Source of the DNA: a virus
Reading direction: 5' to 3' (one strand)
Length of the DNA: 64,000 bases
Virus record (IMG/VR): IMGVR_UViG_3300045988_122718
Span: 64,001 to 128,000 of that record
In this document: positions 44,173 to 57,100 of the stretch, piece by piece
Position numbering within the stretch: the stretch's first letter is position 1
Layout: each line of letters opens with the position of its first letter
Notes under the pieces: model-generated
The model's database searches: none
The model's input: the letters and a program-made list of their open reading frames with translations, nothing else
Told to the model about the DNA's origin: nothing
Program-made: the position numbers and the translations under genes

Positions 44173-44199
44173 AAAAATAGGGGAGACTTTCGTCTCCCC
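44173..44199 (-). terminator. rho-independent terminator between the tRNA island and the glyA RBS
   Basis: In - sense: GGGGAGAC-GAAA-GTCTCCCC followed by TATTTTT, then AAGGAG and the glyA ATG. Confidence 0.7.
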
Positions 44200-44202
44200 T
44201 TA

Positions 44203-44278
44203 TGGAGCACGTGACGAGGCTCGAACTCGCAACAGCCAGATTGGAAATCTGGAACTCTACCAATTGAGCTACACGTGC
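44203..44278 (-). tRNA. tRNA-Gly(UCC)
   Basis: Cloverleaf GCACGTG..CCAGA-TTTCCAA-TCTGG..GCGAG-TTCGAGC-CTCGT-CACGTGC-T-CCA. The CCA is encoded. Confidence 0.9.
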
Positions 44279-44284
44279 ATATAA

Positions 44285-44356
44285 TATTCCACACAGGAGT
44301 CGAACCTGTCTCTCTACGTTCGCGGCGTAGTGTTCTATCCGATGAACTAGTGGAAT
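44285..44356 (-). tRNA. tRNA-Arg(GCG)-like with C33
   Basis: ATTCCAC..CTACG-CCGCGAA-CGTAG..ACAGG-TTCGACT-CCTGT-GTGGAAT. The anticodon loop has C at position 33. No CCA is encoded. Confidence 0.6.
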
Positions 44357-44364
44357 TTGACTTA

Positions 44365-45120
44365 CTATATATCAAATTCTTTGTGTCTACCACAATCTCT
44401 TGATAACCACGTTATATTTCTTTTACCATTACCTTTGTTTGCTCCTCTATATGTAGGAGTTAATGAATGACAATTAGGGCATAACAATGTTAAATTTTCT
44501 TCTTTATTATTTGTTGCATCTCCATCAATATGTTCTATTTCAAGTGGCAAAGTTCCAGTATATGGATTAATTTCACTCCACCCACATTTTGCACATTTAT
44601 TTTCGTATTTATCAAAAATATATTTTTTAATAGACGAAGATAGGTCTATCCATTTATCACCTGTTAATCCATCCCATTCTCCATCTTTCCATTGTTTTAT
44701 TTTTTGTTTATATCTATATTCATTAAAACATTTTGCAGAACAATATTTATTTTTCTTAGGTATTTCTTTATTACAATTAATACAATAATGATGTCCTACT
44801 TTCTTTTTTCTATGTTGGTTGCTATATGTCACAGAGCATGAACGGGAACAAAACTCAATTCTTTTAAAATCACTATTTTTTTGATTATATTTTTGCGAGA
44901 TTTCTTTCCCACAATTTTTACAAAACTTAATATCTAATTCTTCTTTAATGTGCGGACATTTTTCAATCATACAATATTTTATTGTAGATAATTGCTTTTC
45001 AAATGTTTTATGACACCCATCACATTCTACAATATATATAGTATGATTGTCTTTTGTTCTTTTGTCAGATATCCCTATTATTGTATAACATCCATATTTT
45101 TCTCCTATGTGTTTATCCAT
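44365..45120 (-). CDS. HNH endonuclease (multi-Zn-ribbon N-terminus)
   Basis: The C-terminus LEIEHIDGDATNNKEENLTLLCPNCHS is an HNH core. It is embedded in the tRNA array. Confidence 0.8.
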   Translation of the reverse strand: MDKHIGEKYGCYTIIGISDKRTKDNHTIYIVECDGCHKTFEKQLSTIKYCMIEKCPHIKEELDIKFCKNCGKEISQKYNQKNSDFKRIEFCSRSCSVTYSNQHRKKKVGHHYCINCNKEIPKKNKYCSAKCFNEYRYKQKIKQWKDGEWDGLTGDKWIDLSSSIKKYIFDKYENKCAKCGWSEINPYTGTLPLEIEHIDGDATNNKEENLTLLCPNCHSLTPTYRGANKGNGKRNITWLSRDCGRHKEFDI

Positions 45121-45152
45121 TATGTATCACCACGATGTCTATTATTTTAAGA

Positions 45153-45284
45153 TGGTGGGCCTGGAGGAACTCGAATCCTCGACCAATAGCTTAATGGTGG
45201 GAATGGCAGGTGCTGCCCCTACTTGCAAAAGCTTTTCTGAATACACCCCCAAGGCTACTGCTCTACCTACTGAGCTACAGACCC
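45153..45284 (-). tRNA. tRNA-Lys(UUU) interrupted by a 56-nt tRNA-like minihelix
   Basis: GGGTCTG-TA-GCTC..GAGC-A-GTAGC-CTT[56 nt]TTAA-GCTAT-TGGTC-GAGGA-TTCGAGT-TCCTC-CAGGCCC-A-CCA. The length is 76 nt after removal, and the body resembles bacterial tRNA-Lys. Confidence 0.8.
45195..45250 (-). ncRNA. nested tRNA-like minihelix (intron candidate) in tRNA-Lys
   Basis: GGGGGTG-(21 nt)-GTAGG-GGCAGCA-CCTGC-CATTCCC-A-CCA: a 7-bp acceptor-like helix (2 G-U), a 5-bp stem, a 7-nt GGCAGNA loop, a discriminator and CCA. Confidence 0.7.
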
Positions 45285-45287
45285 ATA

Positions 45288-45363
45288 TGGTCTGAGTGGT
45301 GAGTCCCGCCCTCACGGCCTCGTGGTCCCAGGCCACGCGCTCTGCTAACTGAGCTACACCCAG
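45288..45363 (-). tRNA. free-standing tRNA-like gene: Pro(UGG)-type anticodon loop with C33 and non-canonical T-loop GGCGGGA
   Basis: CTGGGTG-TA-GCTC-AGTTAGCA-GAGC-G-CGTGG-CCTGGGA-CCACG-AGGCC-GTGAG-GGCGGGA-CTCAC-CACTCAG-A-CCA. The D-loop lacks GG. Confidence 0.6.
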
Positions 45364-45368
45364 AAATA

Positions 45369-45445
45369 TGGCACCCCGTGTTGGACTCAAACCAACGACA
45401 CATGGCTTAGAAGGCCATTGCTCTGTTCAACTGAGCTAACGGGGC
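45369..45445 (-). tRNA. tRNA-Arg(UCU)
   Basis: GCCCCGT..ATGGC-CTTCTAA-GCCAT..GTTGG-TTTGAGT-CCAAC-ACGGGGT-G-CCA. Confidence 0.85.
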
Positions 45446-45450
45446 ATATA

Positions 45451-45539
45451 TGGCGCGGCGCTGAGGTGTCGATCCCCATTCCTTTCACAGAACCACTAGT
45501 TTTCAAGACTAGGTTGCAAGCCGTTGCAATTAACGCCGC
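45451..45539 (-). tRNA. tRNA-Ser(UGA), class II
   Basis: GCGGCGT..CTAGT-CTTGAAA-ACTAG, a long variable arm, TGGGG-ATCGACA-CCTCA-GCGCCGC-G-CCA. Confidence 0.8.
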
Positions 45540-45649
45540 ATATTTTTGTAATCTCAAACTCCTCCACACAGATTACTGGGCACCCCTTACCTCGAATGCT
45601 AGTTAGTAGCAACAAACGTTTGTGCCGTTTCCACAAATAAAGATACACT

Positions 45650-45844
45650 TTACTGCGTATTAACCTCTGTATATTCAGTACTAGATAAGGTAATCATTCT
45701 TTCGCATCCGTCCTGTGGACAAAAAATATTTGCAACCCCAAGATTATTTATTCCGTCAGACGGATTAAATGCAAATTCACAACCACAATAAGGGCAGATT
45801 GCCTTATAGGTCTTAACTTTGCCTCCCTTGATAATATACTTCAT
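45650..45844 (-). CDS. small Zn-ribbon protein
   Basis: CPYCGC...CPQDGC. ORF with RBS inside the tRNA island. Confidence 0.5.
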   Translation of the reverse strand: MKYIIKGGKVKTYKAICPYCGCEFAFNPSDGINNLGVANIFCPQDGCERMITLSSTEYTEVNTQ

Positions 45845-45855
45845 AGTAACACCTC

Positions 45856-45975
45856 TTAATTAAACTTGCTTAACTGCCGCTTAACCTTACGGATAAGACC
45901 TTCGTTCATAGTCTCGCCTCGTGCCAGAAGCTTTGCTAAACGATTTTCATAATGTTCCTTAGTGCGAAAATTCAT
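45856..45975 (-). CDS. small basic ORF (39 aa)
   Basis: MNFRTKEHYENRLAKLLARGE... with an AGGAGG RBS. Below the ORF-track cutoff. Confidence 0.35.
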   Translation of the reverse strand: MNFRTKEHYENRLAKLLARGETMNEGLIRKVKRQLSKFN

Positions 45976-46001
45976 AATATGTACCTCCTAAAATTTTTGT
46001 A

Positions 46002-46124
46002 TGGCAGGGGTAGCAGGGTTCGAACCTACGATGCGGGAGTCTGGTCAAGGTAGTTGGTACTGCCCCAACTAAATTCACTTGAATACCTTGAAAGTCCCGT
46101 GCCTTACCACTTGGCTATACCCCT
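46002..46124 (-). tRNA. tRNA-Gln(UUG) interrupted by a 49-nt tRNA-like minihelix
   Basis: AGGGGTA-TA-GCC-AAGTGGTAA-GGC-A-CGGGA-CTTT[49 nt]GAC-TCCCG-CATC-GTAGG-TTCGAAC-CCTGC-TACCCCT-G-CCA. The body resembles bacterial tRNA-Gln (GCCAAG.GGUAAGGCA, weak 1-72 pair, G73). Confidence 0.8.
46042..46090 (-). ncRNA. nested tRNA-like minihelix (intron candidate) in tRNA-Gln
   Basis: CAAGGTA-TTCAAGTGAATTTA-GTTGG-GGCAGTA-CCAAC-TACCTTG-A-CCA. Confidence 0.7.
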
Positions 46125-46127
46125 ATA

Positions 46128-46202
46128 TGGTGGATCTGACGTGACTCGAACACGCAACCTCTTCCTTGCAAGGGAAGCTTTCTCCCATTGAAATACAGAC
46201 CC
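46128..46202 (-). tRNA. tRNA-Ala(UGC)
   Basis: GGGTCTG..CTTCC-CTTGCAA-GGAAG..GCGTG-TTCGAGT-CACGT-CAGATCC-A-CCA. G3:U70 is present. Confidence 0.9.
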
Positions 46203-46363
46203 TTATTTTGTGAGGTAACTACACTATGTATACCTAATGTAGCTACTGGCTTTCAAACTCCCCACCTCAAACCATTTTTATCTGTCTCTCCTCTTGGCCA
46301 ACCAGATTTGAGTGATTTGAACGGCGCGCCGTCCTCACATTGATAAAATAGTAAAATCAACAA
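46203..46363 (-). ncRNA. unassigned structured RNA candidate (~135 nt closed by TGTGAGG/CCTCACA)
   Basis: In - sense there is a 7-bp closing helix and the palindrome ACGGCGCGCCGT. Nested helices are TTCAAAT/GTTTGAA and CTCAAAT/GTTTGAG. A 9-bp hairpin is GTAGCTACA/TGTAGTTAC. There is no ORF. It does not fit a tRNA. Confidence 0.35.
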
Positions 46364-46454
46364 TGGCGCGATAGGAAGGCTTCGAACCTTCGCACGGCTT
46401 TCACCGCCTAGCAGATTAGCAATCTACCCTCTTCAACCACTTGAGTACTACCGC
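46364..46454 (-). tRNA. tRNA-Ser(GCU), class II
   Basis: GCGGTAG..GTAGA-TTGCTAA-TCTGC, a long variable arm, GAAGG-TTCGAAG-CCTTC-CTATCGC-G-CCA. Confidence 0.85.
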
Positions 46455-46457
46455 ATA

Positions 46458-46661
46458 TTAATCTAATGTTTTTCCAGTTGCTAATTCAAAAATTAAATTA
46501 TCAACACAAGGAATGTGCATTACCTCTCTCTCATATTGAGTACGATGTTCAATATCATTAATATAGATAGGACAATCTTTACATTCTACATTTTCACAAA
46601 AACGAACAGCTTTTTCTACTACTTTAGAATTCGCAAATTTTATATATTCTTCCCAACGCAT
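46458..46661 (-). CDS. hypothetical Cys-containing protein
   Basis: ORF with a GGAGG RBS (ATG at 46661) directly downstream of a pseudoknot motif. Confidence 0.5.
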   Translation of the reverse strand: MRWEEYIKFANSKVVEKAVRFCENVECKDCPIYINDIEHRTQYEREVMHIPCVDNLIFELATGKTLD

Positions 46662-46678
46662 AAAATCCTCCATAAAAC

Positions 46679-46709
46679 GAGCAGTTTATACAGTGATACT
46701 CAGCACTAT
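46679..46709 (-). ncRNA. H-type pseudoknot motif, copy 1
   Basis: In - sense: ATAGTG-CT-GAGTA-T-CACTGT-ATAAAC-TGCTC. Both stems pair, with G-U pairs valid only in - sense. Confidence 0.55.
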
Positions 46710-46762
46710 CCGTCTGGGTTCCAATATTAGAACCGTCCACAATTGAGTTTTGACCACCATAG

Positions 46763-46837
46763 TGGAGCTGATGGAGAATTTCGAAATCTCGACCTAGTGA
46801 TTACAAATCACTCGCTCTGCCTCTGAGCTACACCAGC
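46763..46837 (-). tRNA. tRNA-Thr(UGU)
   Basis: GCTGGTG..AGTGA-TTTGTAA-TCACT..T-arm GAGAT-TTCGAAA-TTCTC (one mismatch)-CATCAGC-T-CCA. Confidence 0.8.
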
Positions 46838-46891
46838 AGATCTCCTCGTCTTTCCGAGGTGTCAATCACACTTTTACATTAATAATCTTAA

Positions 46892-46920
46892 ATTATTCTT
46901 TAATAGGAAGATGACGTCAA
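46892..46920 (-). promoter_or_regulatory. candidate sigma-A promoter inside the tRNA island
   Basis: TTGACG (46915-46920), 17 nt spacer, AATAAT (46892-46897). It is enclosed by the inverted repeat AATCACAC/GTGTGATT. Confidence 0.4.
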
Positions 46921-46943
46921 TCTGTGTGATTACCTTTTATGTG

Positions 46944-47012
46944 AGGTCTTAATTGGAATCGAACCAACACCTGCCCTACCATAGGGCCGATCTACCATTG
47001 AACTATAAGACC
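46944..47012 (-). tRNA. aberrant tRNA-like gene (anticodon arm GCCCT-ATGGT-AGGGC, 5-nt loop); identity undetermined
   Basis: The acceptor (GGTCTTA/TAAGACC), D-arm and T-arm (GTTGG-TTCGATT-CCAAT) are canonical. The anticodon loop is 2 nt short. Confidence 0.45.
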
Positions 47013-47015
47013 TAT

Positions 47016-47092
47016 GGTGACGCTACCGGGGATCGAACCCGGACACTCCACGGTGAAAGCGTGGTAACTCTACCAATTCGTCCATAGCGCCA
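47016..47092 (-). tRNA. tRNA-Glu(UUC)
   Basis: GGCGCTA..CCACG-CTTTCAC-CGTGG..CCGGG-TTCGATC-CCCGG-TAGCGTC-A-CCA. Confidence 0.85.
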
Positions 47093-47099
47093 TATCTTT

Positions 47100-47130
47100 G
47101 GACAGTTTATACAGTGATGTCCAGCACTGT
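47100..47130 (-). ncRNA. H-type pseudoknot motif, copy 2
   Basis: In - sense: ACAGTG-CT-GGACA-T-CACTGT-ATAAAC-TGTCC. It ends 8 nt before the tRNA-Glu 5' end. Confidence 0.6.
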
Positions 47131-47142
47131 CACTTTTGGGAG

Positions 47143-47227
47143 TGGTAGCGGTGGTGGGCTACGATCCCACACGTCATAAGACATTGGTTTTTGAGACCAA
47201 CCTGTCTACCTGTTCCAGCACACCGCC
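47143..47227 (-). tRNA. tRNA-Leu(CAA), class II
   Basis: GGCGGTG..TTGGT-CTCAAAA-ACCAA, a long variable arm, GTGGG-ATCGTAG-CCCAC-CACCGCT-A-CCA. Confidence 0.8.
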
Positions 47228-47434
47228 ATATTAAGCACAACCTACACTGAGCTAGCCTCGCTCACACTTGCTTTCCCGAACACGTCCCACCCTCGGTTAT
47301 GCTTTGATATTGTTTATCCTATTTTCACAATAACATATGCCTCGTTCTCTTCTTGTTACTGTGGGTCAGTAACTTAGTAGCTTTTCTCTTGTGGATAGCA
47401 CTTATCAATACACCGAGAACCCCAATAGGCGGCA
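47228..47434 (-). ncRNA. unassigned structured non-coding block (207 nt)
   Basis: No ORF. Long-range pairs are GCCT...AGGC and GTTCTC...GAGAAC. Hairpins are GTTACTG-ACCCA-CAGTAAC and TGAGC-GAGGCTA-GCTCA. A D-arm-like TAGCTCAGTGTAGG lies at the 3' end. Confidence 0.3.
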
Positions 47435-47511
47435 TGGTTGCGTGAGGTTAGATTTGAACTAACGATCTTCAGCTTATGGGGCTGACGAGATGACCACTTC
47501 TCTACTCCGCA
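47435..47511 (-). tRNA. tRNA-Met/Ile2(CAU) with C33 and a bulged acceptor stem
   Basis: TGCGGAG-TA-GAGA-AGTGGTCA-TCTC-G-TCAGC-CCCATAA-GCTGA-AGATC-GTTAG-TTCAAAT-CTAAC-CTC(A)CGCA-A-CCA. Confidence 0.6.
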
Positions 47512-47515
47512 GTAT

Positions 47516-47546
47516 CTAGCAGACTATAATGCCGTCTGCTATGGCA
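47516..47546 (-). ncRNA. spacer pseudoknot between tRNA-Ile and tRNA-Met
   Basis: In - sense: ATGCC-A-TAGCAGAC-GGCAT-TATA-GTCTGCTA. It has two interleaved perfect stems. Confidence 0.45.
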
Positions 47547-47566
47547 TCAGAAAGAGGTGTTGCATG

Positions 47567-47719
47567 TGGTCCCCTACCGGTGGATTGAACACCGAACCTC
47601 CCGATTATTGGCCTCCTCAGTAAGTCCTGCCCTTACATCTCTAAATCCTGCTGTTTAGTAGTTCTACTATTAAACTATGAGGAGAAGTCGGGTGCTCTAG
47701 CCAGTTGAGCTAGCAGGGG
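47567..47719 (-). tRNA. tRNA-Ile(UAU) interrupted by a 76-nt tRNA-like element
   Basis: CCCCTGC-TA-GCTC..GAGC-A-CCCGA-CTT[76 nt]ATAA-TCGGG-AGGTT-CGGTG-TTCAATC-CACCG-GTAGGGG-A-CCA. The length is 77 nt after removal. Confidence 0.75.
47609..47684 (-). ncRNA. nested full-length tRNA-like element (intron candidate) in tRNA-Ile
   Basis: CTCCTCA-TA-GTT-TAATAGTAG-AAC-TA-CTAAA-CAGCAGGA-TTTAG-AGAT-GTAAG-GGCAGGA-CTTAC-TGAGGAG-G-CCA. It is cloverleaf-sized, with an 8-nt anticodon-like loop and a GGCAGGA T-loop. Confidence 0.65.
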
Positions 47720-48133
47720 ATATATAATCCGGCTTTTACGGTACGACCAGTAAGATGGACGCGCTTGAATTTCACAATTGCCTAGCGTTTCAGGTACTTT
47801 TTAGGAGTTTGGATGTAATACCTTATCCATTCACGCATAGTCCATTAGTACCATGGGCTATAGGACTCACTCCAAGTGGCCGGATTCAACTCCCCTGTAA
47901 ATTCAGGTCTTCCTATCCCCTACCCTTGAAGGATGTTTACCATACTTTTATACCGCTGGCACACATCAGGCGGCTGTGGTAATGATAGCAAGCGGAGCCG
48001 TGCATGACTCCATTTCATAGTGTTTCGTCAATTGCCTTCAGCTCATCCAAGTAATATCAACAGTTAGCAAATTCTGTCGAGAGCTTATTCTCATCGGTAA
48101 TCACTTATGAAATTTGCACTACTCACTATCATC
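47720..48133 (-). ncRNA. large unassigned structured non-coding block (414 nt)
   Basis: It is visibly GC-richer than the flanks, has no credible ORF or RBS, and lies between tRNA-Asn and tRNA-Ile. Its 3' ~55 nt are repeated at 48291-48345. Confidence 0.35.
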
Positions 48134-48210
48134 TGGCGGGAGTAGAAGGACTTGAACCTACGACATCTTGCTTAACAGGCAAGCGCTCTAACCAACTGAG
48201 CTATACTCCC
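48134..48210 (-). tRNA. tRNA-Asn(GUU)
   Basis: GGGAGTA..CTTGC-CTGTTAA-GCAAG..GTAGG-TTCAAGT-CCTTC-TACTCCC-G-CCA. Confidence 0.85.
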
Positions 48211-48213
48211 AAA

Positions 48214-48290
48214 TGGCGACCCATACCAGACTTGAACTGGTGTCCTCTTGCGTGACAGGCAAGCGTGATACTCTTCTTCACCAATGGGCC
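48214..48290 (-). tRNA. tRNA-Asp(GUC)
   Basis: GGCCCAT..CTTGC-CTGTCAC-GCAAG..ACCAG-TTCAAGT-CTGGT-ATGGGTC-G-CCA. Confidence 0.85.
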
Positions 48291-48408
48291 ATATTATGCC
48301 GGCTTTTACGGCATATTTAGCTAGAATATGCTTGAATTCCACAAAAGATGTTTTCTCTATATTAGACACAGTTATTCCCCGGTAGAAAATCTAACACCCG
48401 CTGCGTCT

Positions 48409-48493
48409 TGGTGGGCCAGGTTGGTGTCAATCCAACTACTCTCGAAGGAAACGGATTTACAATCCGCCGCGTTTGCCGATTCGCTACTGACCC
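48409..48493 (-). tRNA. tRNA-Tyr(GUA), class II
   Basis: GGGTCAG..GCGGA-TTGTAAA-TCCGT, a long variable arm, GTTGG-ATTGACA-CCAAC-CTGGCCC-A-CCA. Confidence 0.85.
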
Positions 48494-48550
48494 ATATAAC
48501 TATACTTTAGTATTTTGTTTTAATGTTTGAGAATTACTTGCCAAGGTCAA

Positions 48551-48683
48551 TGGTGCGGGTAGCGAGACTCGAACTCGCACGGATATTTCACCGAGGGATT
48601 TTTGGTGGATATTGTAGGTACTGCCCCTACCAAAGCACTTGCTATACCCAAGTCCCTTATGTCTGCCATTCCATCATACCCGC
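48551..48683 (-). tRNA. tRNA-Leu(UAA), class II, interrupted by a 47-nt tRNA-like minihelix
   Basis: GCGGGTA..A-AGGGA-CTT[47 nt]AAAA-TCCCT-CGGTGAAATATCCGT-GCGAG-TTCGAGT-CTCGC-TACCCGC-A-CCA. The length is 86 nt after removal. AAGGGA.UUAAAAUCCCUCGG matches bacterial tRNA-Leu(UAA). Confidence 0.8.
48603..48649 (-). ncRNA. nested tRNA-like minihelix (intron candidate) in tRNA-Leu
   Basis: GGGTATA-GCAAGTGCTTTG-GTAGG-GGCAGTA-CCTAC-AATATCC-A-CCA. Confidence 0.7.
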
Positions 48684-48691
48684 ATATCACA

Positions 48692-48721
48692 GGGCAGCTT
48701 TAAGGTGATGCCCAGCACCAT
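48692..48721 (-). ncRNA. H-type pseudoknot motif, copy 3
   Basis: In - sense: ATGGTG-CT-GGGCA-T-CACCTT-AAAGC-TGCCC. It ends 8 nt before the tRNA-Leu(UAA) 5' end and lies just after the stop of the TROVE-like gene. Confidence 0.55.
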
Positions 48722-48731
48722 ACTTAACTCC

Positions 48732-50285
48732 TTAAGAGTTCTTCAATGCGGCTTCCACCGCATCATATCTATCACTCATAAGCGTCTCAACTAGACACTC
48801 ATAAGGATCGGGTTTACCACTCATAACCATCTTGCAAACATTAGTGGAGAATCCGCTAACAAGAGCAACACCAAGGTCATTCTCCTTTACATGAATAGTT
48901 CCAGTGCGAGAATTTACATTCCAGAAGACTAGTCTAGGCATCTTATACCCAGCATACTCGAAACGCTTTTTGATCACATTAAAAAGTCTTGCATTAGGTC
49001 TATTAATACCATATCTAGCGGAACCATCACATGTTGCACAAGAGTCAAACTCCATGTCTGAAATAATGAGTACATTCTTAGGCATATCCTCTTGCTTCAT
49101 ACGACCATTTACCGCAGTAGTAAGAATCAAATCAAACACCTTTTCAATGTTTGTATTCGAACACTCGTCATGACCATACGCAACACATAACTTATCTCTC
49201 AGAGAATCGCACTGACTAAAATCAACCAACTGAGGTCTGCTAGAGAAAGTAATATATTTATCTTTAAAGTCTCCAGAAGAATGTTCTGCAAAGTAAATTG
49301 CAAGTGCATTTGCAACTTCAAGTGCAGTAACACGGCTACTTTCACCAACGTTACAACACATAGAAGCAGAACCATCTGCAACTACAATGGTGTTTCCACA
49401 CTCATTTACTGTATCAGGCAAAGCCCTCCAAAGAGATTCAAGAGTTGCATCATACTTGTTGACATAATTATTCCATCCAATTGTGTTAGAATACTTATGT
49501 ACAATGTCGTGAGGGAACAAAGTTCTAGCATTAATCTTAGTTTCACCATTTTCAAGCTTACTTAGATACTCTCTGCGACGCTCCTTATCATTACGAAGGA
49601 AAGCTCCGTTATAAATGAGATTTGCACGAGAAGGAACCGTTTCGTACTTAATGTCTCCCCATTTCTTTGCAGACATCTTACTTTCTACAATGTCAATGTA
49701 AGAACGCAGAGAAGAAAGAATCTTACGATACTTACGCTCTGTCATTCCAAGATTCTTGCAAATGTATCTTGCATCCATCTTAGTTTTTGCAGAAGAAGCA
49801 TTCACAGAAGGAAGCCACTTTGCAAGAAGAGATACGGGCTTATTATCAGCCATATTTGCAATGTCATCGGTGAGCTGCTTTTTGATGATGTCAAGAATAA
49901 CACCATCTACATCTGTTCCAAACAGACACCATAGGTCATCATAACGACCATACTCACTCACTAGAGGAGCAAGATGCTTAACAATGTCAACGTCATCCTT
50001 TACCATATTCTTAAGAATCACTCTGAACAAATGTCTCTCACCAAGACCACCATGAACATCTCTGGCGAAGAACAGCCAACGTAGAGCCATCATTTTATCT
50101 TCAAAATAAGCCTTAGTAAACTTATTATAGATATTCTCCTCACTCATACCACGCATAGAAGAAACTGCAAAGTTTAGGTCAACCAGTTCCTTACCAGAGG
50201 TACGATACCCAAGAGCGCCATTCTCAGTTACTGAATAGTTGAAATCCTCGTTCAGAGTATTCTTTACTGCATTCATAAAAGACAT
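48732..50285 (-). CDS. TROVE/DUF2828-like + vWA domain protein (Ro60-related candidate)
   Basis: The N-terminus VTENGALGYRTSGKELVDLNF...RWLFFARDVHGGLGER resembles DUF2828/TROVE. The C-terminal half has the vWA MIDAS motif VVADGSASM (D-x-S-x-S). A GGAGG RBS precedes the ATG at 50285. The size is Ro60-like. Confidence 0.6.
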   Translation of the reverse strand: MSFMNAVKNTLNEDFNYSVTENGALGYRTSGKELVDLNFAVSSMRGMSEENIYNKFTKAYFEDKMMALRWLFFARDVHGGLGERHLFRVILKNMVKDDVDIVKHLAPLVSEYGRYDDLWCLFGTDVDGVILDIIKKQLTDDIANMADNKPVSLLAKWLPSVNASSAKTKMDARYICKNLGMTERKYRKILSSLRSYIDIVESKMSAKKWGDIKYETVPSRANLIYNGAFLRNDKERRREYLSKLENGETKINARTLFPHDIVHKYSNTIGWNNYVNKYDATLESLWRALPDTVNECGNTIVVADGSASMCCNVGESSRVTALEVANALAIYFAEHSSGDFKDKYITFSSRPQLVDFSQCDSLRDKLCVAYGHDECSNTNIEKVFDLILTTAVNGRMKQEDMPKNVLIISDMEFDSCATCDGSARYGINRPNARLFNVIKKRFEYAGYKMPRLVFWNVNSRTGTIHVKENDLGVALVSGFSTNVCKMVMSGKPDPYECLVETLMSDRYDAVEAALKNS

Positions 50286-50530
50286 TTTCTTTCCTCCATT
50301 TTTTTGATTTATTTCTAAATCCCAAGACACATTATTATGTACAATCTCCACATTAAAAATTTGCTGTTAGTGTCTTTGGAGTTTATTCAACGAGACGCCA
50401 AAATAAAACCATTAGTAAAAATATCATTTTCATCTTTTTAAATTACTGTAAGCGTCTCTATGTAAGGCAAGGCACCATCAATACAAATCCATATCATATT
50501 ATGTAAAGTTGCTGTTAGTGCCTTTTTAAA

Positions 50531-50648
50531 GTCTCCTGACAGGACTTGAACCTGCGACCTCTGGTTTAACAGACCAATTAGAAACTTGCTATTTAAGGCT
50601 TTTACAAGTCTCGTTATTAAGCGCTCTATCCGACTGAGCTACAGGAGA
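50531..50648 (-). tRNA. tRNA-Asn(GUU) copy with a 44-nt insertion between the D-arm and anticodon stem
   Basis: TCTCCTG-TA-GCTC-AGTCGGATA-GAGC-G-[44 nt]-TTGGT-CTGTTAA-ACCAG-AGGTC-GCAGG-TTCAAGT-CCTGT-CAGGAGA-C. No CCA is encoded. Confidence 0.55.
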
Positions 50649-50657
50649 CATATTTAT

Positions 50658-50685
50658 GAGCAGTTTAACGAGGTGCTCGGCTCAC
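50658..50685 (-). ncRNA. H-type pseudoknot motif, copy 4 (in the 5' leader of the tRNA-Asn transcript)
   Basis: In - sense: AGTGAG-CC-GAGCA-C-CTCGTT-AAAC-TGCTC. Stem 2 uses two G-U pairs that are valid only in - sense. Confidence 0.5.
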
Positions 50686-50686
50686 T

Positions 50687-50731
50687 TTAATTTTGTACTG
50701 TGATTATACCACAGATTACTTATTTTGTCAA
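50687..50731 (-). promoter_or_regulatory. sigma-A promoter + leader box driving the tRNA-Asn copy
   Basis: TTGACA (50726-50731), 17 nt spacer, TGGTATAAT (-10 at 50703-50708), then ACAGTACAAAATTAA (50687-50701). Confidence 0.65.
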
Positions 50732-50739
50732 ATACTTTT

Positions 50740-50805
50740 TTACTTTTTATTCCAGAGAAGCCATCCACAAGCAACTCCGAACAAGAAACATACAATTTGT
50801 TTCAT
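50740..50805 (-). CDS. micro-ORF encoding a 21-aa hydrophobic peptide
   Basis: MKQIVCFLFGVACGWLLWNKK, with an AAGGAAGAAG RBS, lying between two promoters. Confidence 0.3.
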   Translation of the reverse strand: MKQIVCFLFGVACGWLLWNKK

Positions 50806-50820
50806 CTTTACTTCTTCCTT

Positions 50821-50849
50821 ATTATACCATATTCTGCATCATTTGTCAA
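50821..50849 (-). promoter_or_regulatory. sigma-A promoter
   Basis: TTGACA (50844-50849), 17 nt spacer, TGGTATAAT (-10 at 50821-50826). Confidence 0.6.
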
Positions 50850-51196
50850 GCATTTTCTCGATTTTTTCTTGTGCAACTTACTCGATTGCAGAACTCAAAC
50901 TGCACCGCATTCAAATCCTCTGCAAACTCGTCACACTTGGCATCCAGTGCTGTATAGTACCGATCCAGAAGCTTTGCCTTTGCCATCTTCATGCCGACAG
51001 CAGGATTATACTCATCATCAGGATGGCATACGACAACCGCACGATAAGAACTACTCATCAGGTACTTGCTAGGATTGAAACACAGAGATTTGGTTTGTCC
51101 CATAATCTTTGCAATCTTATGAATAGCGTCATACTTCGTATTTTCAAGAATCGCGATAGTCTTGTTTTGCTCCGGCACATGTACAAACTTAATCAT
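50846..51196 (-). CDS. hypothetical protein
   Basis: ORF behind promoter + leader box. Confidence 0.5.
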   Translation of the reverse strand: MIKFVHVPEQNKTIAILENTKYDAIHKIAKIMGQTKSLCFNPSKYLMSSSYRAVVVCHPDDEYNPAVGMKMAKAKLLDRYYTALDAKCDEFAEDLNAVQFEFCNRVSCTRKNRENA

Positions 51197-51217
51197 TTTT
51201 TGTTATCCTTTCTTGTT

Positions 51218-51262
51218 TTAATTTTGTATTGTGATTATAACATACTTTCTTGAACTTGTCAA
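51218..51262 (-). promoter_or_regulatory. sigma-A promoter + leader-box variant
   Basis: TTGACA (51257-51262), 17 nt spacer, TGTTATAAT (-10 at 51234-51239), then ACAATACAAAATTAA (51218-51232). Confidence 0.65.
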
Positions 51263-51311
51263 GCACCTTTTTAACCATCCCGGTAAAGGTTCTTGCCTCA
51301 TTCATTGTTTG

Positions 51312-51340
51312 TATTATAGCACATTAATTTTGTTTTGTCA
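51312..51340 (-). promoter_or_regulatory. sigma-A promoter (tandem, upstream of the previous one)
   Basis: TTGACA (51335-51340, overlapping the TGA of the PurA-like gene), 17 nt spacer, TGCTATAAT (-10 at 51312-51317). Confidence 0.6.
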
Positions 51341-52486
51341 AGTATCTTTTTTAAATAATTTTCTAGTTTCTTCATAAGACAGGTACTTAATATTAATGCC
51401 CGTCAAATTCAGCAGTTTTTCATTTTTAAACTCGTTAACATGAGTTACTGCCAGAGACACCTCATAGGCAATATCCCCAATATCTTCCTTAATTCTTTGC
51501 ATAAGCTCACCAACATCAAGATGCCCATACCGAATAGACCCCTGATACTGGTTTGTAATATTGGTCTTGTCATCAATGTTAATGTTAATCTCCGACTTGT
51601 CACATTCACATTCAAAATCACCAGCACCATGCTTCGTCATATATGTTCTAGTAACATAGCACACTTCAACGTTTGCATTAGGTAAATACTTTTCAATGAT
51701 TATATGAGGATTTGCAATGCCAGTATTGCTAGGAGTCGTATTATCATAATACTGAACATGACGCTGATCCAACAGCAATCCTTGCCCATTTTCAAATATA
51801 ACGTTATCAAACTTTTGCAAAATCCTACTATAATCAAATACTACATGAGAATGTATAAACTGCACATCGTCAATAAAGTTATAAATCAAATTGTCGGATG
51901 CCAAAATATCTTCCCATTCCTGCAAAACTTCAGGACTAGCCTTTAGCAGCCTCTTAGACGTATATTCATCCCTGACACGCTTAAGAAATGCGACCTGCTC
52001 GTCCTTAGTCATATTATAAAACTGCTGGAAAGACGGACTTGTAGTATTCCTATATCTAAGAACAGTTTCCCAAATACCCATACCACAAGAGCCATACCGA
52101 TTTTTGCCACGACTATCCTCAAGGATTTGATTTGTAATCATATCATATGGAGTAGACCATCTGCAATTCCAATGACTATAAACACGAGGTGCATAGCCTA
52201 ATGCCTTCAGTTCCTCGTACTCTTTTCTAAAAGTCATAGGATTTAGAATATACTCTTCCCCAAAATAAGTATCTGCTCCCGCAAAGGTTCCTGAACCAAA
52301 ATGGTGGAACACATGTCTAATGTCATCTGGAGTAACTACAGTATGTCCTCTTTGTGCGCCGCCATTGCATAGAGCAACGATACAAGATTCATTCCGCTTA
52401 CTTGCTTCGGCACAAAAGTAATCGGTCATCAGACCTTTTCCCTCGTCGCCAAAATTGCTGCCAATTACTACCTTAACATTAGACAT
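51338..52486 (-). CDS. adenylosuccinate-synthetase-like (PurA family) enzyme, divergent
   Basis: P-loop VVIGSNFGDEGKGLMTDYF, GGAQRGHTV and YGSCGMGIWET parallel the PurA motifs (GDEGKG, N-A-GHT, TTG-GIGP). The ATG at 52486 follows AAAGGA. Confidence 0.65.
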   Translation of the reverse strand: MSNVKVVIGSNFGDEGKGLMTDYFCAEASKRNESCIVALCNGGAQRGHTVVTPDDIRHVFHHFGSGTFAGADTYFGEEYILNPMTFRKEYEELKALGYAPRVYSHWNCRWSTPYDMITNQILEDSRGKNRYGSCGMGIWETVLRYRNTTSPSFQQFYNMTKDEQVAFLKRVRDEYTSKRLLKASPEVLQEWEDILASDNLIYNFIDDVQFIHSHVVFDYSRILQKFDNVIFENGQGLLLDQRHVQYYDNTTPSNTGIANPHIIIEKYLPNANVEVCYVTRTYMTKHGAGDFECECDKSEININIDDKTNITNQYQGSIRYGHLDVGELMQRIKEDIGDIAYEVSLAVTHVNEFKNEKLLNLTGINIKYLSYEETRKLFKKDT

Positions 52487-52500
52487 GTGTTTATCCTTTC

Positions 52501-53355
52501 TTACCAAGAAATACCTTCACTAGATGTTGCTACATTGCCACCAGAAAACGCATTGGTGACAATATCAATGATGTCGTCTGCAATCTTATCAACAGATGTA
52601 TCCTTCAGATGATTCTCGTCCAGAAGCTGTCCGAAAGTCTTATGAACATCCTCCTGATAACGACCATAACCATGCTTGACATACAGGTGATAGATATCAA
52701 ACTTCTCGGATGCATCAATGTAAAGCTGCGTCGTTTCAATATCATTCTGTAGGTCATCACCAGTCACTGCAGATAGAGCCTTCTTCGGCAGATATGGATT
52801 CATAGGCTCATCACCCATAGTGATAATGACACCCTTCTGTCCACGATTCCAGCAGTCTAGCTTCGTGTGGTTAAGGCCGAAATACCATGCGGCGCTATAA
52901 GACTCATAAGCATTACCTCCGCCGCCGCCCTCAAAATAAATCTTATCAAGCTGTTCTGCGATACGGATATCAGACTCAAACTGGGATGCCTGAATTGGAG
53001 CGCAATCGTAAGCAAGGTCCCCAATGCCCATAACCATAAACTCTACGTCTGCGATATTCTCGTATAGTTTGGTCATTACTACGTTGATCTGCTTTGCAAC
53101 TTCCATAGCCGCCTTGCCCATGCTACCAGTTACATCGAGTGCTAGAATAACAGGCTTGGTATTAGGATGCTCCACAGAATCAACACACTCACGCATTACA
53201 TTCTTGGGATCAAGGTCTGCTACTAGCATTCTAGATCTGAAATTGTCCTGCACATTAGAGGACATTCCAGTGACTACACCGTCCATTGACACGTTGTACC
53301 CCTTGGTAGTCGTATAAGAGGTAAAAGCGCTTCTAGTCCAACTGCCACCGCCCAT
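52501..53355 (-). CDS. von Willebrand factor A (vWA) domain protein
   Basis: The MIDAS motif is LALDVTGSMG (D-x-T/S-x-S), with a beta-alpha pattern typical of vWA. Confidence 0.7.
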   Translation of the reverse strand: MGGGSWTRSAFTSYTTTKGYNVSMDGVVTGMSSNVQDNFRSRMLVADLDPKNVMRECVDSVEHPNTKPVILALDVTGSMGKAAMEVAKQINVVMTKLYENIADVEFMVMGIGDLAYDCAPIQASQFESDIRIAEQLDKIYFEGGGGGNAYESYSAAWYFGLNHTKLDCWNRGQKGVIITMGDEPMNPYLPKKALSAVTGDDLQNDIETTQLYIDASEKFDIYHLYVKHGYGRYQEDVHKTFGQLLDENHLKDTSVDKIADDIIDIVTNAFSGGNVATSSEGISW

Positions 53356-53357
53356 TC

Positions 53358-53933
53358 TTACTCAGCCTCACTTTCATCATCAATATCAAAATCAAACATG
53401 CCACTAAACATGTCGGATACATTGTTGCCGTTCATAAGCATCATCATAGGAAGCATAGAATTCATACCATTGCCGGTGCCACTGTTGCCCTTCATCATCT
53501 CGGACATAATCATATAAGACATCATCTTGTCCATACCCTTCTTGCCCTTCATGAAGTTGTTGCCGAACATGGATACAATCTTGCCGTAGAAATAAGTGCT
53601 ACCCATAAAGACATGGCGCTCAGGAAGAATAGTTTCTACAGTAGAGTCCTCGTAGTTGATTACGGTGATAGTGTCCTTCTCAGCCTTAATCACACACTTG
53701 GGCTTACCAGAAACCAGAATGATGTCGCCAACCTCAACCTTGTTCGTAGGCATAACAAAGAAGAACTCTTCACCAATGTCAAAAACAAAGCTGTCACAAT
53801 TCGTCAGACGACCATTCTTTACATTGTAGCTCTTGTAACCATTAGAAGTCTTGACCGCGATACCACCGTTCATAGAAAGTCTGCACATACCAGGTGCAAT
53901 CTTGCCGAACATACCATTAAATACGTTTGTCAT
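53358..53933 (-). CDS. hypothetical protein with Met/Gly/Asn-rich C-terminal tail
   Basis: The ATG at 53933 follows AAAAGGAG and the leader box. The C-terminus is MMSYMIMSEMMKGNSGTGNGMNSMLPMMMLMNGNN. Confidence 0.55.
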   Translation of the reverse strand: MTNVFNGMFGKIAPGMCRLSMNGGIAVKTSNGYKSYNVKNGRLTNCDSFVFDIGEEFFFVMPTNKVEVGDIILVSGKPKCVIKAEKDTITVINYEDSTVETILPERHVFMGSTYFYGKIVSMFGNNFMKGKKGMDKMMSYMIMSEMMKGNSGTGNGMNSMLPMMMLMNGNNVSDMFSGMFDFDIDDESEAE

Positions 53934-53955
53934 AATGTTTCTCCTTTTTTGAACT

Positions 53956-54013
53956 TTAATTTTGTACTGTCTTTTGATGATTGAATAATACCACATCAAC
54001 TTCATTTTGTCAA
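53956..54013 (-). promoter_or_regulatory. sigma-A promoter + leader box (box displaced 14 nt from the -10)
   Basis: TTGACA (54008-54013), 17 nt spacer, TGGTATTAT (-10 at 53985-53990), then ACAGTACAAAATTAA (53956-53970). Confidence 0.6.
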
Positions 54014-54088
54014 ATGGTTTCTTCAAGTTTTTTTGAGAGGTGGCTCGGCAGTATGTGTAAGTTTGAACCACCTCTCAACTGTATCTGG

Positions 54089-54117
54089 ATTATAGCACCA
54101 GATGTTTTATTTATCAA
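54089..54117 (-). promoter_or_regulatory. sigma-A promoter (tandem)
   Basis: TTGATA (54112-54117, overlapping the dnaE TGA), 17 nt spacer, TGCTATAAT (-10 at 54089-54094). Confidence 0.55.
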
Positions 54118-57100
54118 GAGGGTAATTGCACGTTTATCAAGTAGTTCGTCAGCCATTTCTCCGTGACAGAATAATTCTTTTGCCACTGGCCATCGACCAA
54201 CTTTGACTTCGGTCGCTGCTCCCAATGGAAATTCAAAAAGCACCCCTTATCAAAAGGATTTTTCTCATATGCCCTTTTTTGCACTTTATATGTCACGATC
54301 TTTCCGTCCCAGAGTTGATAAATCTGTATCTTTGGAGAATATCGGCAATTCACATCCATGACATAACCAATATCCTTTTTGCTTTCATCCTTATAACAAA
54401 TATAACCTAAATACTCTGACTGCCATGTAAATATGCTTTGCATAGGTACGGTGCAATTGCTCGGAATCATACAACAAAGTTCTGTGATAAAGCCGTTTGT
54501 GTCCTGTACTCGCCACTGCTTCTCTGTCTCCGTACAATACTTGGTTAAAATCTCCATAGGAAGTTTACACTTATCCTTCTTGATAATTTTCTTTCCGCCA
54601 TATGCATTATACATTTCAACTGTACGTAGTAAAGTACCTATAGTTCCGAACTCAGAAAAATAATCGAGCTTAATCAAAATGTCTAACATTCTACTGTTTC
54701 CAGGAAACGCCCTAATGATATCTACGAATGAGTCAAAATGCTCATCTTTCATCGCATAAAGTTTATCCGATGTTTCTGCGTTAATAAATTTGACCGAAGA
54801 CATGCCTTTATAGATCGTATTTTCTGTCTTATCACAGTTATAATCAGACTTAGAGTGTCTAAACTTTATGTCCTTCAATGTAATACCGAAGTACGGAAGT
54901 TCATCAATAAGCTTTGCCGTTCTATCCATATCGCCACTATACATAGTAAGTACTACAGTAAAGTATTCAAGAGGATAATGCGACTTCAAATACGCTCCGT
55001 ACATTGAGTCTATTGCCACACTAAGACTATGTGATGCATTGAACGAGTAGTGTGCAGCATCATTAACAACTTGCCATGTTTCTGCGAAGCCTTTTTCTGT
55101 ACCAACATTTTTAATCCAACCTTGTAGAAGCTCTGATTCAAGTTTCTTCAACTCATCCTCTTTGAATTTCTTCTTTGCAATCTTCTTGATGGTATCATAG
55201 GTGCCCTTTTCTTCCATACCTAACCACACAAGATAGCTCATGATATTCTCTTGGTACATAAGAAAATGGAATGAGTCTTCTAGAATATCATCAAGCTCTT
55301 TGACGCCTGTAGTATATGGCTTCCTCTCTACAAATGTATTTAACAATGAAGCAAAGCCAGGGCGAATAGCGGCTACATATGCAGACATCTCTGCTAAGTT
55401 TCTAGGTTTATACCTCTTAAGAATCTGCTTATCATAATCACTATCGGCCTGATTTATTGTCGTAGTAAGACCTTTAGCATAAATATCCCACACCTTATCA
55501 TCGCAGTTTTTGATAAGTGTCGTAATATTGTCAATCGGTCTACCAATCATTTCATATACATCATGAATAATCTGATATACAGAAACAGTTAAATAATCGT
55601 TCTTTAGATACTTATAAACATCACAATTATAACCATCAAGACAGCAACAAGTTACGTCTCCGACCTTAATTAGACCTATCATTTCAGATATTTTATCGTT
55701 GGACAGAAGAAAACTACAAGGACTTGGTGCAACACTTTCTACTACTCCACGGAAAATCTTGCTACCCTCTATCAAATCCTTCCACTTAGGGTCATCCAAA
55801 TGATTTTCCAAATTTTTCGCCACATCATCATACTCTGAAATGTTAAGGCCATTAGCTTTACACCAAAGACGGAACGCAGAAGATTCCTGTAGTGGCTTAT
55901 ACGCAACCATATAATAGATTCCGTCTTCGCCAAGAATATCCTTACTCGCTTGAATAACAGGTGTTACATCCGCAAAGTTAAGATCAATATCTGGGATGCT
56001 GCGACTAGAAAGAATACGCTCTGCCGACATAAATCTCGTAGGATAGAGTTTGATAGGGGCACTAATACGGTCTACCTCGGTAAGCCCTAACAACTTGTTG
56101 ATATAAAAAGACACTGCCGATCCACGCCCGCTACGAGTTAAAATGGCATCATAATCCTTGACTGCCTTTTCTACAACGTAATGGTCTAGAATAAAATAGT
56201 CTGCCATACCACAGTCTTCAATAATCTTATATTCGTACTTGATTTGCTCGATATATTCCTTGTGACGTTCTTTAGGCACATTGACCTTTTCTCTGCGCCA
56301 TCCTTCATTGATAAGCTTTCGCAAAATAGCATTGCTATCGCCTTCAACTACTTTAGGAATTTTAAACTCCTTATCAATATAAATACCTTCGGCATTATCG
56401 AATACAAGGGTATTATTTAGGGCTTCTTCCACTTCTCCTCTTGTGAGTATCCCCTGTTTCTCATAGCGTTCAAAGATAGTATCAGAATCAGGATAGTCAA
56501 GACAGAATCCTGATTCTTCTTCATATACAATGCCTTTAGCCTTTAAGAATAAGTCACGATACTTGGCATCTTCTGGTAAAATATAGTGAGAGTCATTGGC
56601 ATGGATAATAGGCACACCAGTCTCTCTATGCAAAGCAATAATCTTTTTATTATACTCTATCTGGTGAATATCATTATGATTTTGCACCTCAAGATAAAAA
56701 TTTTTCCCAAAATGTTTATAAAGAGGTTCAAAAAAGTTAGCGCTCCAATAATCTGGTTCAATCGGTATCTTTTCGTAAATTGGCTTTTTAACAATCCGAT
56801 CTCCCACATGATAACTGGGGCCAGAATCATTAACCACTACGTCTCTATATCCGATAATATTTCTTGTTTCTTCATAATATTTTGGTTTAAACATTCTCCC
56901 AGCAATACAAGCAGTCGTTACAACAACTTCTTCTGCCGGTAGACTAAGGAGGAGTTTGAGATCAATTCTTGGCTTATAATAATACCCTTCAGTATTGGCC
57001 ACAGACATAATCCTGTTGATTTCTCTACGAGCATTTTCTGTTAAAGCCACAAGCATTATATGATAATTTGTTCGACTTGTTTTATCATTGATGTCGTCAA

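Follow-up and report, generated by a model that had tools for sequence, protein, structure and literature searches.

The interrupted tRNA-Leu gene

The stretch of DNA analysed here (the window) comprises 64,000 nucleotides, positions 64,001 to 128,000, of the IMG/VR virus record IMGVR_UViG_3300045988_122718. Its minus strand carries a gene for tRNA-Leu(UAA) that is interrupted, within the anticodon loop, by a 47-nt insert with the predicted shape of an acceptor/T-arm minihelix, that is, by a tRNA-like unit nested inside a tRNA. Around this gene are located the gene for a Ro60-like protein and three more tRNA genes interrupted in the anticodon loop; on the same strand, 10-15 kb downstream from this Leu gene, are found the genes for an RNA ligase, a polynucleotide kinase-like protein, an RlaP-like nucleotidyltransferase, and a metallophosphoesterase (Table 1).

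Table 1 Coordinates of the interrupted tRNA genes and of neighbouring features in the window.
Feature	Position	Strand	Basis and remarks
Interrupted tRNA-Leu(UAA), 133 nt	48551..48683	minus	ARAGORN with introns; Rfam tRNA; insert-free alleles equal the joined exons
Leu 5' exon, 34 nt, ends AGGGA-CUU	48683..48650	minus	ARAGORN and allele comparison
Leu insert, 47 nt, between U34 and A35	48649..48603	minus	ARAGORN and allele comparison
Leu 3' exon, AAAA-TCCCT start	48602..48551	minus	ARAGORN and allele comparison
Nested minihelix, 47 nt	48603..48649	minus	GGGUAUA/AAUAUCC acceptor-like stem, AAGU hairpin, T-arm-like GUAGG-GGCAGUA-CCUAC, A73-like base, CCA
Interrupted tRNA-Ile(UAU)	47567..47719	minus	76-nt cloverleaf-like unit 47609-47684 after U34 (CUU, insert, AUAA), tail GCCA
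Interrupted tRNA-Gln(UUG)	46002..46124	minus	49-nt minihelix 46042-46090 after U35 (CUUU, insert, GAC); insert-free alleles in L003, L008
Interrupted tRNA-Lys(UUU)	45153..45284	minus	56-nt minihelix 45195-45250 after U34 (CUU, insert, UUAA); Rfam tRNA 56.8 bits
Free-standing tRNA-like gene, 76 nt, relative of the nested units	45288..45363	minus	T-loop GGCGGGA, anticodon loop CCUGGGA; Rfam tRNA 43.8 bits; minihelix scan and fold
Ro60-like protein gene	48732..50285	minus	Pfam DUF2828 and DUF7788; PHROG 850 'RNA-binding protein'; stop 48 nt upstream of tRNA-Leu
Putative single transcription unit	44179..50731	minus	Type-2 interrupted tRNA, Ro60-like gene, tRNA array with HNH ORF; consensus scans only
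HNH endonuclease ORF	44365-45120	minus	Between interrupted tRNA-Lys and tRNA-Arg(GCG); apparently a mobile, free-standing endonuclease
ATP-dependent RNA ligase, Rnl5/NgrRnl type, candidate exon sealer	37473..38636	minus	Pfam PF21189 (N-terminal OB) and PF09414; 5cot E 1.5e-39; PHROG 968
RlaP-like nucleotidyltransferase (RNA-repair-associated family)	36386..37195	minus	Pfam RlaP weak, 3.5e-4; PHROG 388 nucleotidyltransferase 4e-17
Polynucleotide 5'-kinase-like, P-loop AAA_33	35284..36195	minus	Pfam; Clostridium thermocellum Pnkp kinase domain 4gp7 E 3e-13; PHROG 505 polynucleotide kinase
Calcineurin-like metallophosphoesterase, possible 2',3'-phosphate end healer	33833..34381	minus	Pfam Metallophos_2 1.6e-8

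The minus strand of the Leu gene reads GCGGGTATGATGGAATGGCAGACATAAGGGA-CTT-[GGGTATAGCAAGTGCTTTGGTAGGGGCAGTACCTACAATATCCACCA]-AAAA-TCCCT...CTACCCGCACCA, where the part set in square brackets is the insert. ARAGORN misses the gene with default settings; when permitted to consider introns, it reports a tRNA at c[48551,48683], guessed to be Pro-UGG, whose anticodon loop holds an insert of 47 nt, and the outer gene scores above the gathering threshold of the Rfam tRNA family RF00005 (39.7 bits vs 29 for 48554-48683, filters relaxed). Deletion of the insert yields the 7-nt anticodon loop CUUAAAA with the anticodon UAA, a class II variable arm, and A73. The long variable arm and A73 fit Leu, so that the Pro identity guessed by ARAGORN is ruled out, as is Ser(UGA). 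A preliminary description of this DNA had rejected the UGG anticodon as incompatible with the long variable arm and had predicted that removal of the insert restores CUUAAAA in a class II tRNA-Leu(UAA); comparison with insert-free alleles bears out both statements.

Those alleles were found among 44 related phage loci (numbered L001 onward) that were retrieved by similarity to the Ro60-like protein. In L003, L007, and L008, an 86-nt tRNA-Leu(UAA) gene, labelled Leu(taa) by ARAGORN, occupies the matching position next to the same upstream gene and equals the window exons joined, and the 47-nt insert is present in the Leu genes of L001, L002, L006, L009, L012, and L035. Alignment of the alleles with and without the insert gives a clean 47-nt indel in near-identical flanking DNA. 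Given the insert-free alleles, and given that moving either boundary by a single base alters the sequence of the anticodon loop, the insert lies exactly between U34 and A35, with boundaries that are unambiguous and fixed to the nucleotide. The predicted junction of the joined exons reads GGGACUU followed by AAAAUCCCU, with CUU abutting AAAA in the anticodon loop. The Leu exons resemble phage tRNA-Leu genes; among the cultured phages in INPHARED, we found no close relative, only generic matches to the tRNA exons. A 'Pseudo-TAA' tRNA of Bacillus phage Izhevsk turned out to be uninterrupted.

The insert itself reads GGGTATA-GCAAGTGCTTTG-GTAGG-GGCAGTA-CCTAC-AATATCC-A-CCA. Its acceptor-like stem contains six pairs out of seven, with A.A at pair 7:66, and the predicted minimum-energy fold reproduces the entire layout. 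Variants of the Leu insert with other acceptor strands (GCTGATA, GAGTATA, GCTTGAT, and GTTGGAT) retain the pairing. The preliminary description, which saw in the insert a nested minihelix of acceptor and T arm with ACCA at its end, thus agrees with both the predicted fold and the covariation.

A family of nested tRNA-like units

The inserts in the anticodon loops of the Leu, Lys, Gln, and Ile genes of the window, four in all, share the nested acceptor/T-arm design. The preliminary description held up with respect to structure but not with respect to its functional suggestions, an alanine identity of the minihelix and a tie to the Ro60-like protein (discussed below), and it overlooked the three further interrupted tRNAs as well as the RNA ligase/kinase cassette. 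ARAGORN mis-calls the interrupted Lys-UUU, Gln-UUG, and Ile-UAU genes as Thr, Glu, and Arg, just as it assigns the Leu gene to Pro; when standard tRNA finders mis-call interrupted genes in this manner, phage tRNA repertoires and the inferences on codon usage drawn from them are misread.

A family search that covered 106 loci, retrieved with the Ro60-like protein and the RNA ligase, along with a pattern scan of IMG/VR, revealed inserts with nested units in about 13 lineages. The common layout combines an acceptor-like stem of 7 bp with, in order, a middle part that varies (12-42 nt), a hairpin with a 5-bp stem and a 7-nt loop that abuts the 3' acceptor strand, a discriminator-like base, and CCA; the Leu copy and the family layout alike thus present the stack of 7 bp and 5 bp, the 7-nt loop, and the N73-CCA end by which an acceptor/T-arm minihelix is defined. 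Across 14 distinct members, accepted with at least 5/7 acceptor pairs, the 12 acceptor and T pairs are paired in 97% of the cases, 11 of the 12 show compensatory changes, and none of 500 shuffles matches this. Shifting the partner columns reduces the pairing to 36-47%, and the equivalents of G53:C61 and C56 are invariant among the nested units. By our own calculation, at least 6/7 terminal pairs, a neighbouring 5/5-bp hairpin, and CCA at the end would coincide in an insert at a fixed position with a chance probability of about 1.5e-6. A scan of the whole window for minihelices at the 6/7 threshold gives about 11 chance hits per shuffled window, so that the motif alone is not significant, and the significance stems from its coincidence with independently defined insert ends.

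The nested units form a size gradient, from cloverleaf-like units of 71-77 nt down to the 47-nt minihelices. At the upper end, a 77-nt unit is nested after U36 of tRNA-Ile(UAU) in L006 (about 12140-12295), L007 (12133-12286), and L046 (about 1480-1640); its T-loop is canonical, its anticodon loop, GUCUAGC, contains an amber-suppressor-like CUA, and ARAGORN reports it as tRNA-Pyl(cta). If real, this arrangement would let one gene release two tRNAs. Separately, we observed tRNAs of class I size (76-79 nt, lacking the long variable arm) with the anticodon UAA in L101 (at 1529), L076 (907), L092 (17737), L097 (17207), and L102 (8109), that of L101 holding a 71-nt nested unit.

In all lineages, the tRNAs that host inserts have U34 and an anticodon loop starting with CUU, namely, Leu-UAA, Ile-UAU, Thr-UGU, Gln-UUG, and Lys-UUU. 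The site of insertion is mostly 34/35, sometimes 35/36 or 36/37, and once 32/33, and the insert is preceded by U in every lineage except one. The site thus shifts, but the insert always starts at +1 and stops at CCA, which suggests that the cut positions are set by the insert rather than by the host tRNA.

The T-loop of most nested units is GGCAGNA, although some have canonical or other loops. In the loci retrieved by protein similarity, this loop occurs in 31 nested and 2 free copies. Free-standing phage tRNAs with the T-loop GGCAGYA in place of TTCRANY, and with D-loops such as AACAGUA that lack GG, are nevertheless widespread: they occur in many IMG/VR loci (for example, L240, L241, L250, L261, and L294) and in Bacillota/Clostridia bins (L176, L179, L202, L212, and L217) and have normal-looking anticodon loops (Gln, Lys, Trp, Val, and others), the copy in the window, with CCUGGGA, being odd in this respect. 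The presence of the loop in so many free-standing phage tRNAs implies that the nested units derive from a class of phage tRNAs and that the loop is not a special protein-binding motif. Scanning bacterial genomes for the 17-mer of the T-arm gave hits at about chance level; 8 of 120 had full tRNA architecture, and these were mostly free-standing tRNAs.

An insert of this kind could also remain unspliced: a tRNA-like element, selfish or domesticated, would then have put the host tRNA gene out of action, and the only products would be the minihelix or the tRNA halves, which might act as decoys for tRNA-targeting host enzymes or toxins. The presence/absence polymorphism among near-identical phages indeed resembles that of a mobile element, the nested unit is equipped for release as a stable CCA-ended RNA, and some relatives possess additional intact copies of the Lys, Gln, or Ile tRNA genes. 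The outer exons, however, show no decay: they match the insert-free alleles fully in Leu and almost fully in Gln, and in the outer tRNA-Ile(UAU), compensatory substitutions have preserved both the acceptor and the T stem across the insert-bearing lineages, in which the nested stem changes too. For the Ile and Lys types, no insert-free allele was found in any retrieved locus, which indicates that the interrupted state is stable and old. Moreover, within the window, there are no intact Leu-UAA, Gln-UUG, Lys-UUU, or Ile-UAU genes, and the respective codons TTA, CAA, AAA, and ATA are common in its ORFs, so that destruction by such elements would have cost the window four tRNAs for frequent codons at once. 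Because both the outer and the inner structures are preserved, we regard an unspliced element as quite unlikely and the interrupted genes as probably functional still. The nested unit retains ACCA or ACAA even in L060, L075, and L081, where no CCA is encoded by the outer Leu gene.

Possible routes of insert removal

From the architecture, the exact boundaries, the covariation, and the long persistence of outer and inner structures alike, together with the presence of the cassette, we infer that the interrupted genes may be spliced, and each enzymatic step proposed here is likewise inferred. Specifically, we suggest that the Leu insert is a tRNA-derived minihelix intron that is cut at its own mature-tRNA ends, the exons being sealed by the phage ligase, and put the probability of this reading at roughly 0.5. 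Nested units start at +1 of the 7-bp acceptor-like stem and end with N73-CCA, so that the boundaries of the insert coincide with mature tRNA-like 5' and 3' ends. RNase P would cut 5' of the nested stem, leaving a 5' exon that ends with a 3'-OH at U34; an endonucleolytic cut exactly after the nested CCA would free the 3' exon; and the two exons, held together by the outer cloverleaf, would be joined in the anticodon loop by the Rnl5-type ligase, with the kinase and the phosphoesterase taking part if the exon ends need healing.

The cut by RNase P at the 5' end of the nested unit is well grounded in principle, by analogy with known substrates. Minihelices made of an acceptor and a T arm with a 3' NCCA are classic RNase P substrates, and RNase P prefers U(-1) in the leader, so that the prevalent U at -1 is consistent with cleavage at +1. 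The free-standing phage tRNAs with the GGCAGYA loop must themselves undergo end processing, which supports the same for the nested units. A natural parallel is the YrlA RNA of Mycobacterium smegmatis, which adjoins the Ro60 gene and in which a 7-bp acceptor-like stem is cut by RNase P, with CCA added afterwards (PMC4201824). In YrlA, mascRNA/MALAT1, plant mitochondrial t-elements, and mitochondrial tRNA punctuation, modules are released by RNase P and RNase Z under the direction of an embedded acceptor/T-arm mimic, as we envisage here, but their flanks are not re-joined, whereas the flanks of the phage inserts are tRNA halves that need ligation. For this latter part, the closest likeness is to T4 Pnkp/Rnl1 and bacterial Pnkp-Hen1, in that the phage encodes a kinase, a phosphoesterase, and an RNA ligase able to reseal an anticodon loop; those systems repair damage by host nucleases and have no known role in the removal of an encoded insert, and the window ligase is of the Rnl5 (NgrRnl) type, its match 5cot being the RNA ligase of Naegleria gruberi. 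By analogy, then, the nested insert would work most like the RNase P/Z-released tRNA modules combined with phage repair of the anticodon loop.

Several considerations weigh against removal at the insert's own mature ends. The spliced 86-nt species is a prediction from the DNA sequence. The cut exactly after CCA is the weak point: RNase Z normally cleaves after N73, and CCA inhibits it; in hosts of the Bacillus type, exonucleases trim the precursors that encode CCA, so that no defined 3' exon would result. The ligase belongs to the nick-sealing NgrRnl type and not to the T4 Rnl1 type, for which action on anticodon loops is known. RNA-repair cassettes are widespread among phages, where they counteract anticodon nucleases, and the presence of one here is therefore not specific to splicing. 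In two lineages, the insert terminates with CAA instead of CCA, and in one, the base at -1 is C. Finally, shuffled sequences fold with energies not significantly worse than those of the nested units (z -0.4 to -1.8), so that it is the covariation that carries the structural argument, and the filter used to select the members inflates the acceptor statistics, the T stem having been left unfiltered.

The gene content of the cassette bears on the principal rival, namely, that the insert is a genuine intron removed by a dedicated endonuclease, or otherwise, in such a way that the ends carry 2',3'-cyclic phosphate and 5'-OH. These ends would be healed by the kinase and the phosphoesterase before the ligase seals them. 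The 5'-kinase and the metallophosphoesterase, which would be needless if the cuts left 3'-OH and 5'-phosphate, hint that some ends may be of this kind. The enzyme could be phage-encoded or a host anticodon-loop nuclease, with the tRNA-like shape serving as a recognition handle only. Such a role agrees with the strong conservation of GGCAGNA and its excess among nested over free copies in the loci retrieved by protein similarity, and also with the confinement of the inserts to U34 tRNAs, mostly at 34/35, where known anticodon nucleases also cut; furthermore, the cut after CCA is not explained by the RNase P model. However, we detected no candidate endonuclease among the scanned ORFs of the window, the GGCAGYA loop is common in free-standing phage tRNAs and thus marks a tRNA variant rather than a special handle, and some nested units have canonical or other loops. 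We therefore consider a dedicated endonuclease unlikely, although it remains the foremost competitor of cleavage at the mature tRNA-like ends.

Among the known classes of tRNA introns, those with the bulge-helix-bulge (BHB) motif of archaea and eukaryotes, which are processed by EndA/TSEN together with RtcB or Trl1, are similar to the phage inserts in being short, non-self-splicing, located in the anticodon region, and dependent on an endonuclease and an RNA ligase for removal, and the kinase, phosphoesterase, and ligase of the window resemble the heal-and-seal pathway of protein-spliced tRNA introns. The phage inserts differ in that their junctions flank a 12-bp acceptor/T stack and a 4-nt NCCA tail, in the site (34/35 rather than 37/38), and in the phage setting; we know of no tRNA splicing endonuclease in bacteriophages. 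The BHB motif requires two 3-nt bulges that carry the splice sites and a 4-bp helix between them. On inspection, the 5' site of the Leu insert abuts the nested 7-bp stem, the 3' site follows the ACCA tail, and A35-A38 cannot pair with G1'-U4', so that this class was discarded. A group I intron was discarded as well: 47 nt are too short for the P3-P8 core of about 200 nt or more, and the region matched no Rfam Intron_gpI model, only tRNA. The group I intron of the cyanobacterial and plastid tRNA-Leu(UAA), which interrupts the same tRNA at the same point between U34 and A35, differs from the Leu insert, which folds as a minihelix.

The nearest precedent comes from the Lak megaphages, for which short 'enigmatic' tRNA inserts were reported that show presence/absence polymorphism between related genomes and one of which, in tRNA-Thr(UGU), is itself predicted as a tRNA (Devoto et al., bioRxiv 10.1101/356790). 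The comparison is by description only, and that paper does not mention a 7-bp stem, a T-arm, NCCA, minihelix forms, a boundary rule, covariation, a link to an RNA ligase, or a mechanism. Apart from this remark, literature searches turned up no account of tRNA-like or minihelix introns. Thus, the insert family fits no characterised class of tRNA introns, which suggests a new route of tRNA splicing. Only tentatively do we extend the proposal to the family at large, as a further class of phage tRNA introns that begin and end at the mature termini of a nested tRNA or minihelix and are excised by the end-processing enzymes of the cell, with the phage repair ligase completing the splice. Given that the inserts run exactly from +1 to CCA at sites of the anticodon-nuclease type in U34 tRNAs, they may originate at the RNA level, through the sealing of a mature tRNA by the repair ligase into an anticodon loop that had been cut, followed by copying of the joined RNA into DNA.

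If the inserts are indeed spliced, this would be protein-dependent tRNA splicing in viruses that infect bacteria, without self-splicing or a BHB endonuclease, that relies on universal signals of tRNA end maturation and an RNA-repair ligase. Phage RNA ligase/kinase cassettes would gain a constitutive role beyond damage repair, and the 'enigmatic' tRNA introns of huge phages would be accounted for. The inserts would also be natural minimal substrates of RNase P, and each outer gene would provide a present-day case of a tRNA pieced together from two halves around a minihelix, of relevance to long-standing ideas on the origin of tRNA.

The Ro60-like neighbour and other genes of the window

The preliminary description placed the tRNA-Leu close downstream of a Ro60-like gene and considered the two to be probably co-transcribed. 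The proximity holds, and the AlphaFold2 model of the protein (pLDDT 71.6) has nine top Foldseek matches in the PDB that are all Ro60/TROVE (E 5e-7 to 8e-4, TM-scores 0.34-0.50), including Ro60 of Thermus phage phiLo (E 5e-7). The sequence of this ORF matched neither Pfam TROVE nor any PDB entry, the fold search alone being successful, so that the protein is Ro60/TROVE-like at the fold level only, on a model of moderate quality; the Ro60/TROVE fold is that of a HEAT-repeat ring together with a vWA domain. Co-transcription is plausible, given that the block lies between a promoter at 50731-50703, beyond which three others are located further upstream, and one terminator-like site at 44200-44179, all of them consensus matches only. 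The promoters upstream of the tRNA genes and the Ro60-like gene, four in total within 640 bp (50703-51341, minus strand), are perfect 12-of-12 sigma-70 consensus sites with the extended -10 TG.

A specific link between the Ro60-like gene and tRNA-Leu, as implied in the preliminary description, is contradicted by a clade with roughly 60% identity in which the gene is kept without the downstream tRNA. Its constant neighbours are instead upstream tRNAs with a second, unrelated type of insert, which directly precede the Ro60-like gene in all 44 of the 44 loci, an arrangement that recalls the synteny of Ro60 and Y RNA. This second type, represented in the window at 50530-50649 on the minus strand and in about 70 distinct tRNAs in L001-L106, is located between the D arm and the anticodon arm, almost exclusively in tRNAs without an encoded CCA. 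It comprises an A-rich run, a covarying hairpin of 6-9 bp with loops that are often GUAU or GUUA, followed by the conserved heptamer ACAGCAA and a tail rich in A and U, and has no match in Rfam.

The window copy of the Leu minihelix combines G1:C72, G2:C71, G3:U70, and A73, from which an alanine acceptor identity had been suggested. One could thus imagine that the excised minihelix is an alanine acceptor or, given the predicted fold of the neighbouring protein, a specific ligand of the latter, all the more so as Ro60 binds a helix with a single-stranded 3' tail, and the Y RNAs encoded near Ro60 genes mimic tRNA (PMC4201824). The G3:U70 pair is, however, confined to the variant found in the window and in L001. 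The other insert variants have G3:C70 (with G2:U71), U3:A70, A3:U70, or C3:G70, and G3:U70 is missing from the other Leu inserts as well as from the Lys, Gln, and Ile inserts, so that the alanine set is coincidental, and we rejected an alanine-accepting minihelix. Together with the conservation of the Ro60-like gene in a clade without such a downstream tRNA, and the failure of the region to match any Rfam Y RNA family, this makes either function very improbable. A Y RNA or YrlA identity of the element itself was likewise dismissed, there being no Rfam Y RNA match at E <= 1 and the topology being inverted, with the tRNA as the outer molecule.

The HNH endonuclease ORF between the interrupted tRNA-Lys and tRNA-Arg was considered as a homing enzyme of the inserts. 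In L003, the interrupted tRNA-Lys directly adjoins tRNA-Arg without this ORF, which is therefore an independent insertion. The same part of the window contains an 89-nt class II tRNA-Ser(UGA) gene (45451-45539, minus strand; loop CUUGAAA, G73, and CCA) that is missed by both ARAGORN and Rfam and was detected in the minihelix scan.

Elsewhere on the minus strand of the window, a C5 cytosine methyltransferase gene (24735-27061) is apparently split into an N-terminal half (26366-27061) and a C-terminal half (24735-25922), and the ORF between them (25849-26379) encodes a NUMOD1 domain, which suggests the insertion of an intron or a homing endonuclease. The large subunit of ribonucleotide reductase (19820-23236, minus strand) contains an intein, with matches to Hint and LAGLIDADG. 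Finally, the region 51338-57317 of the minus strand includes a truncated gene similar to adenylosuccinate synthetase, possibly PurZ-like, and the gene for a DnaE-type polymerase as its neighbour, with two ORFs of unassigned function between them.

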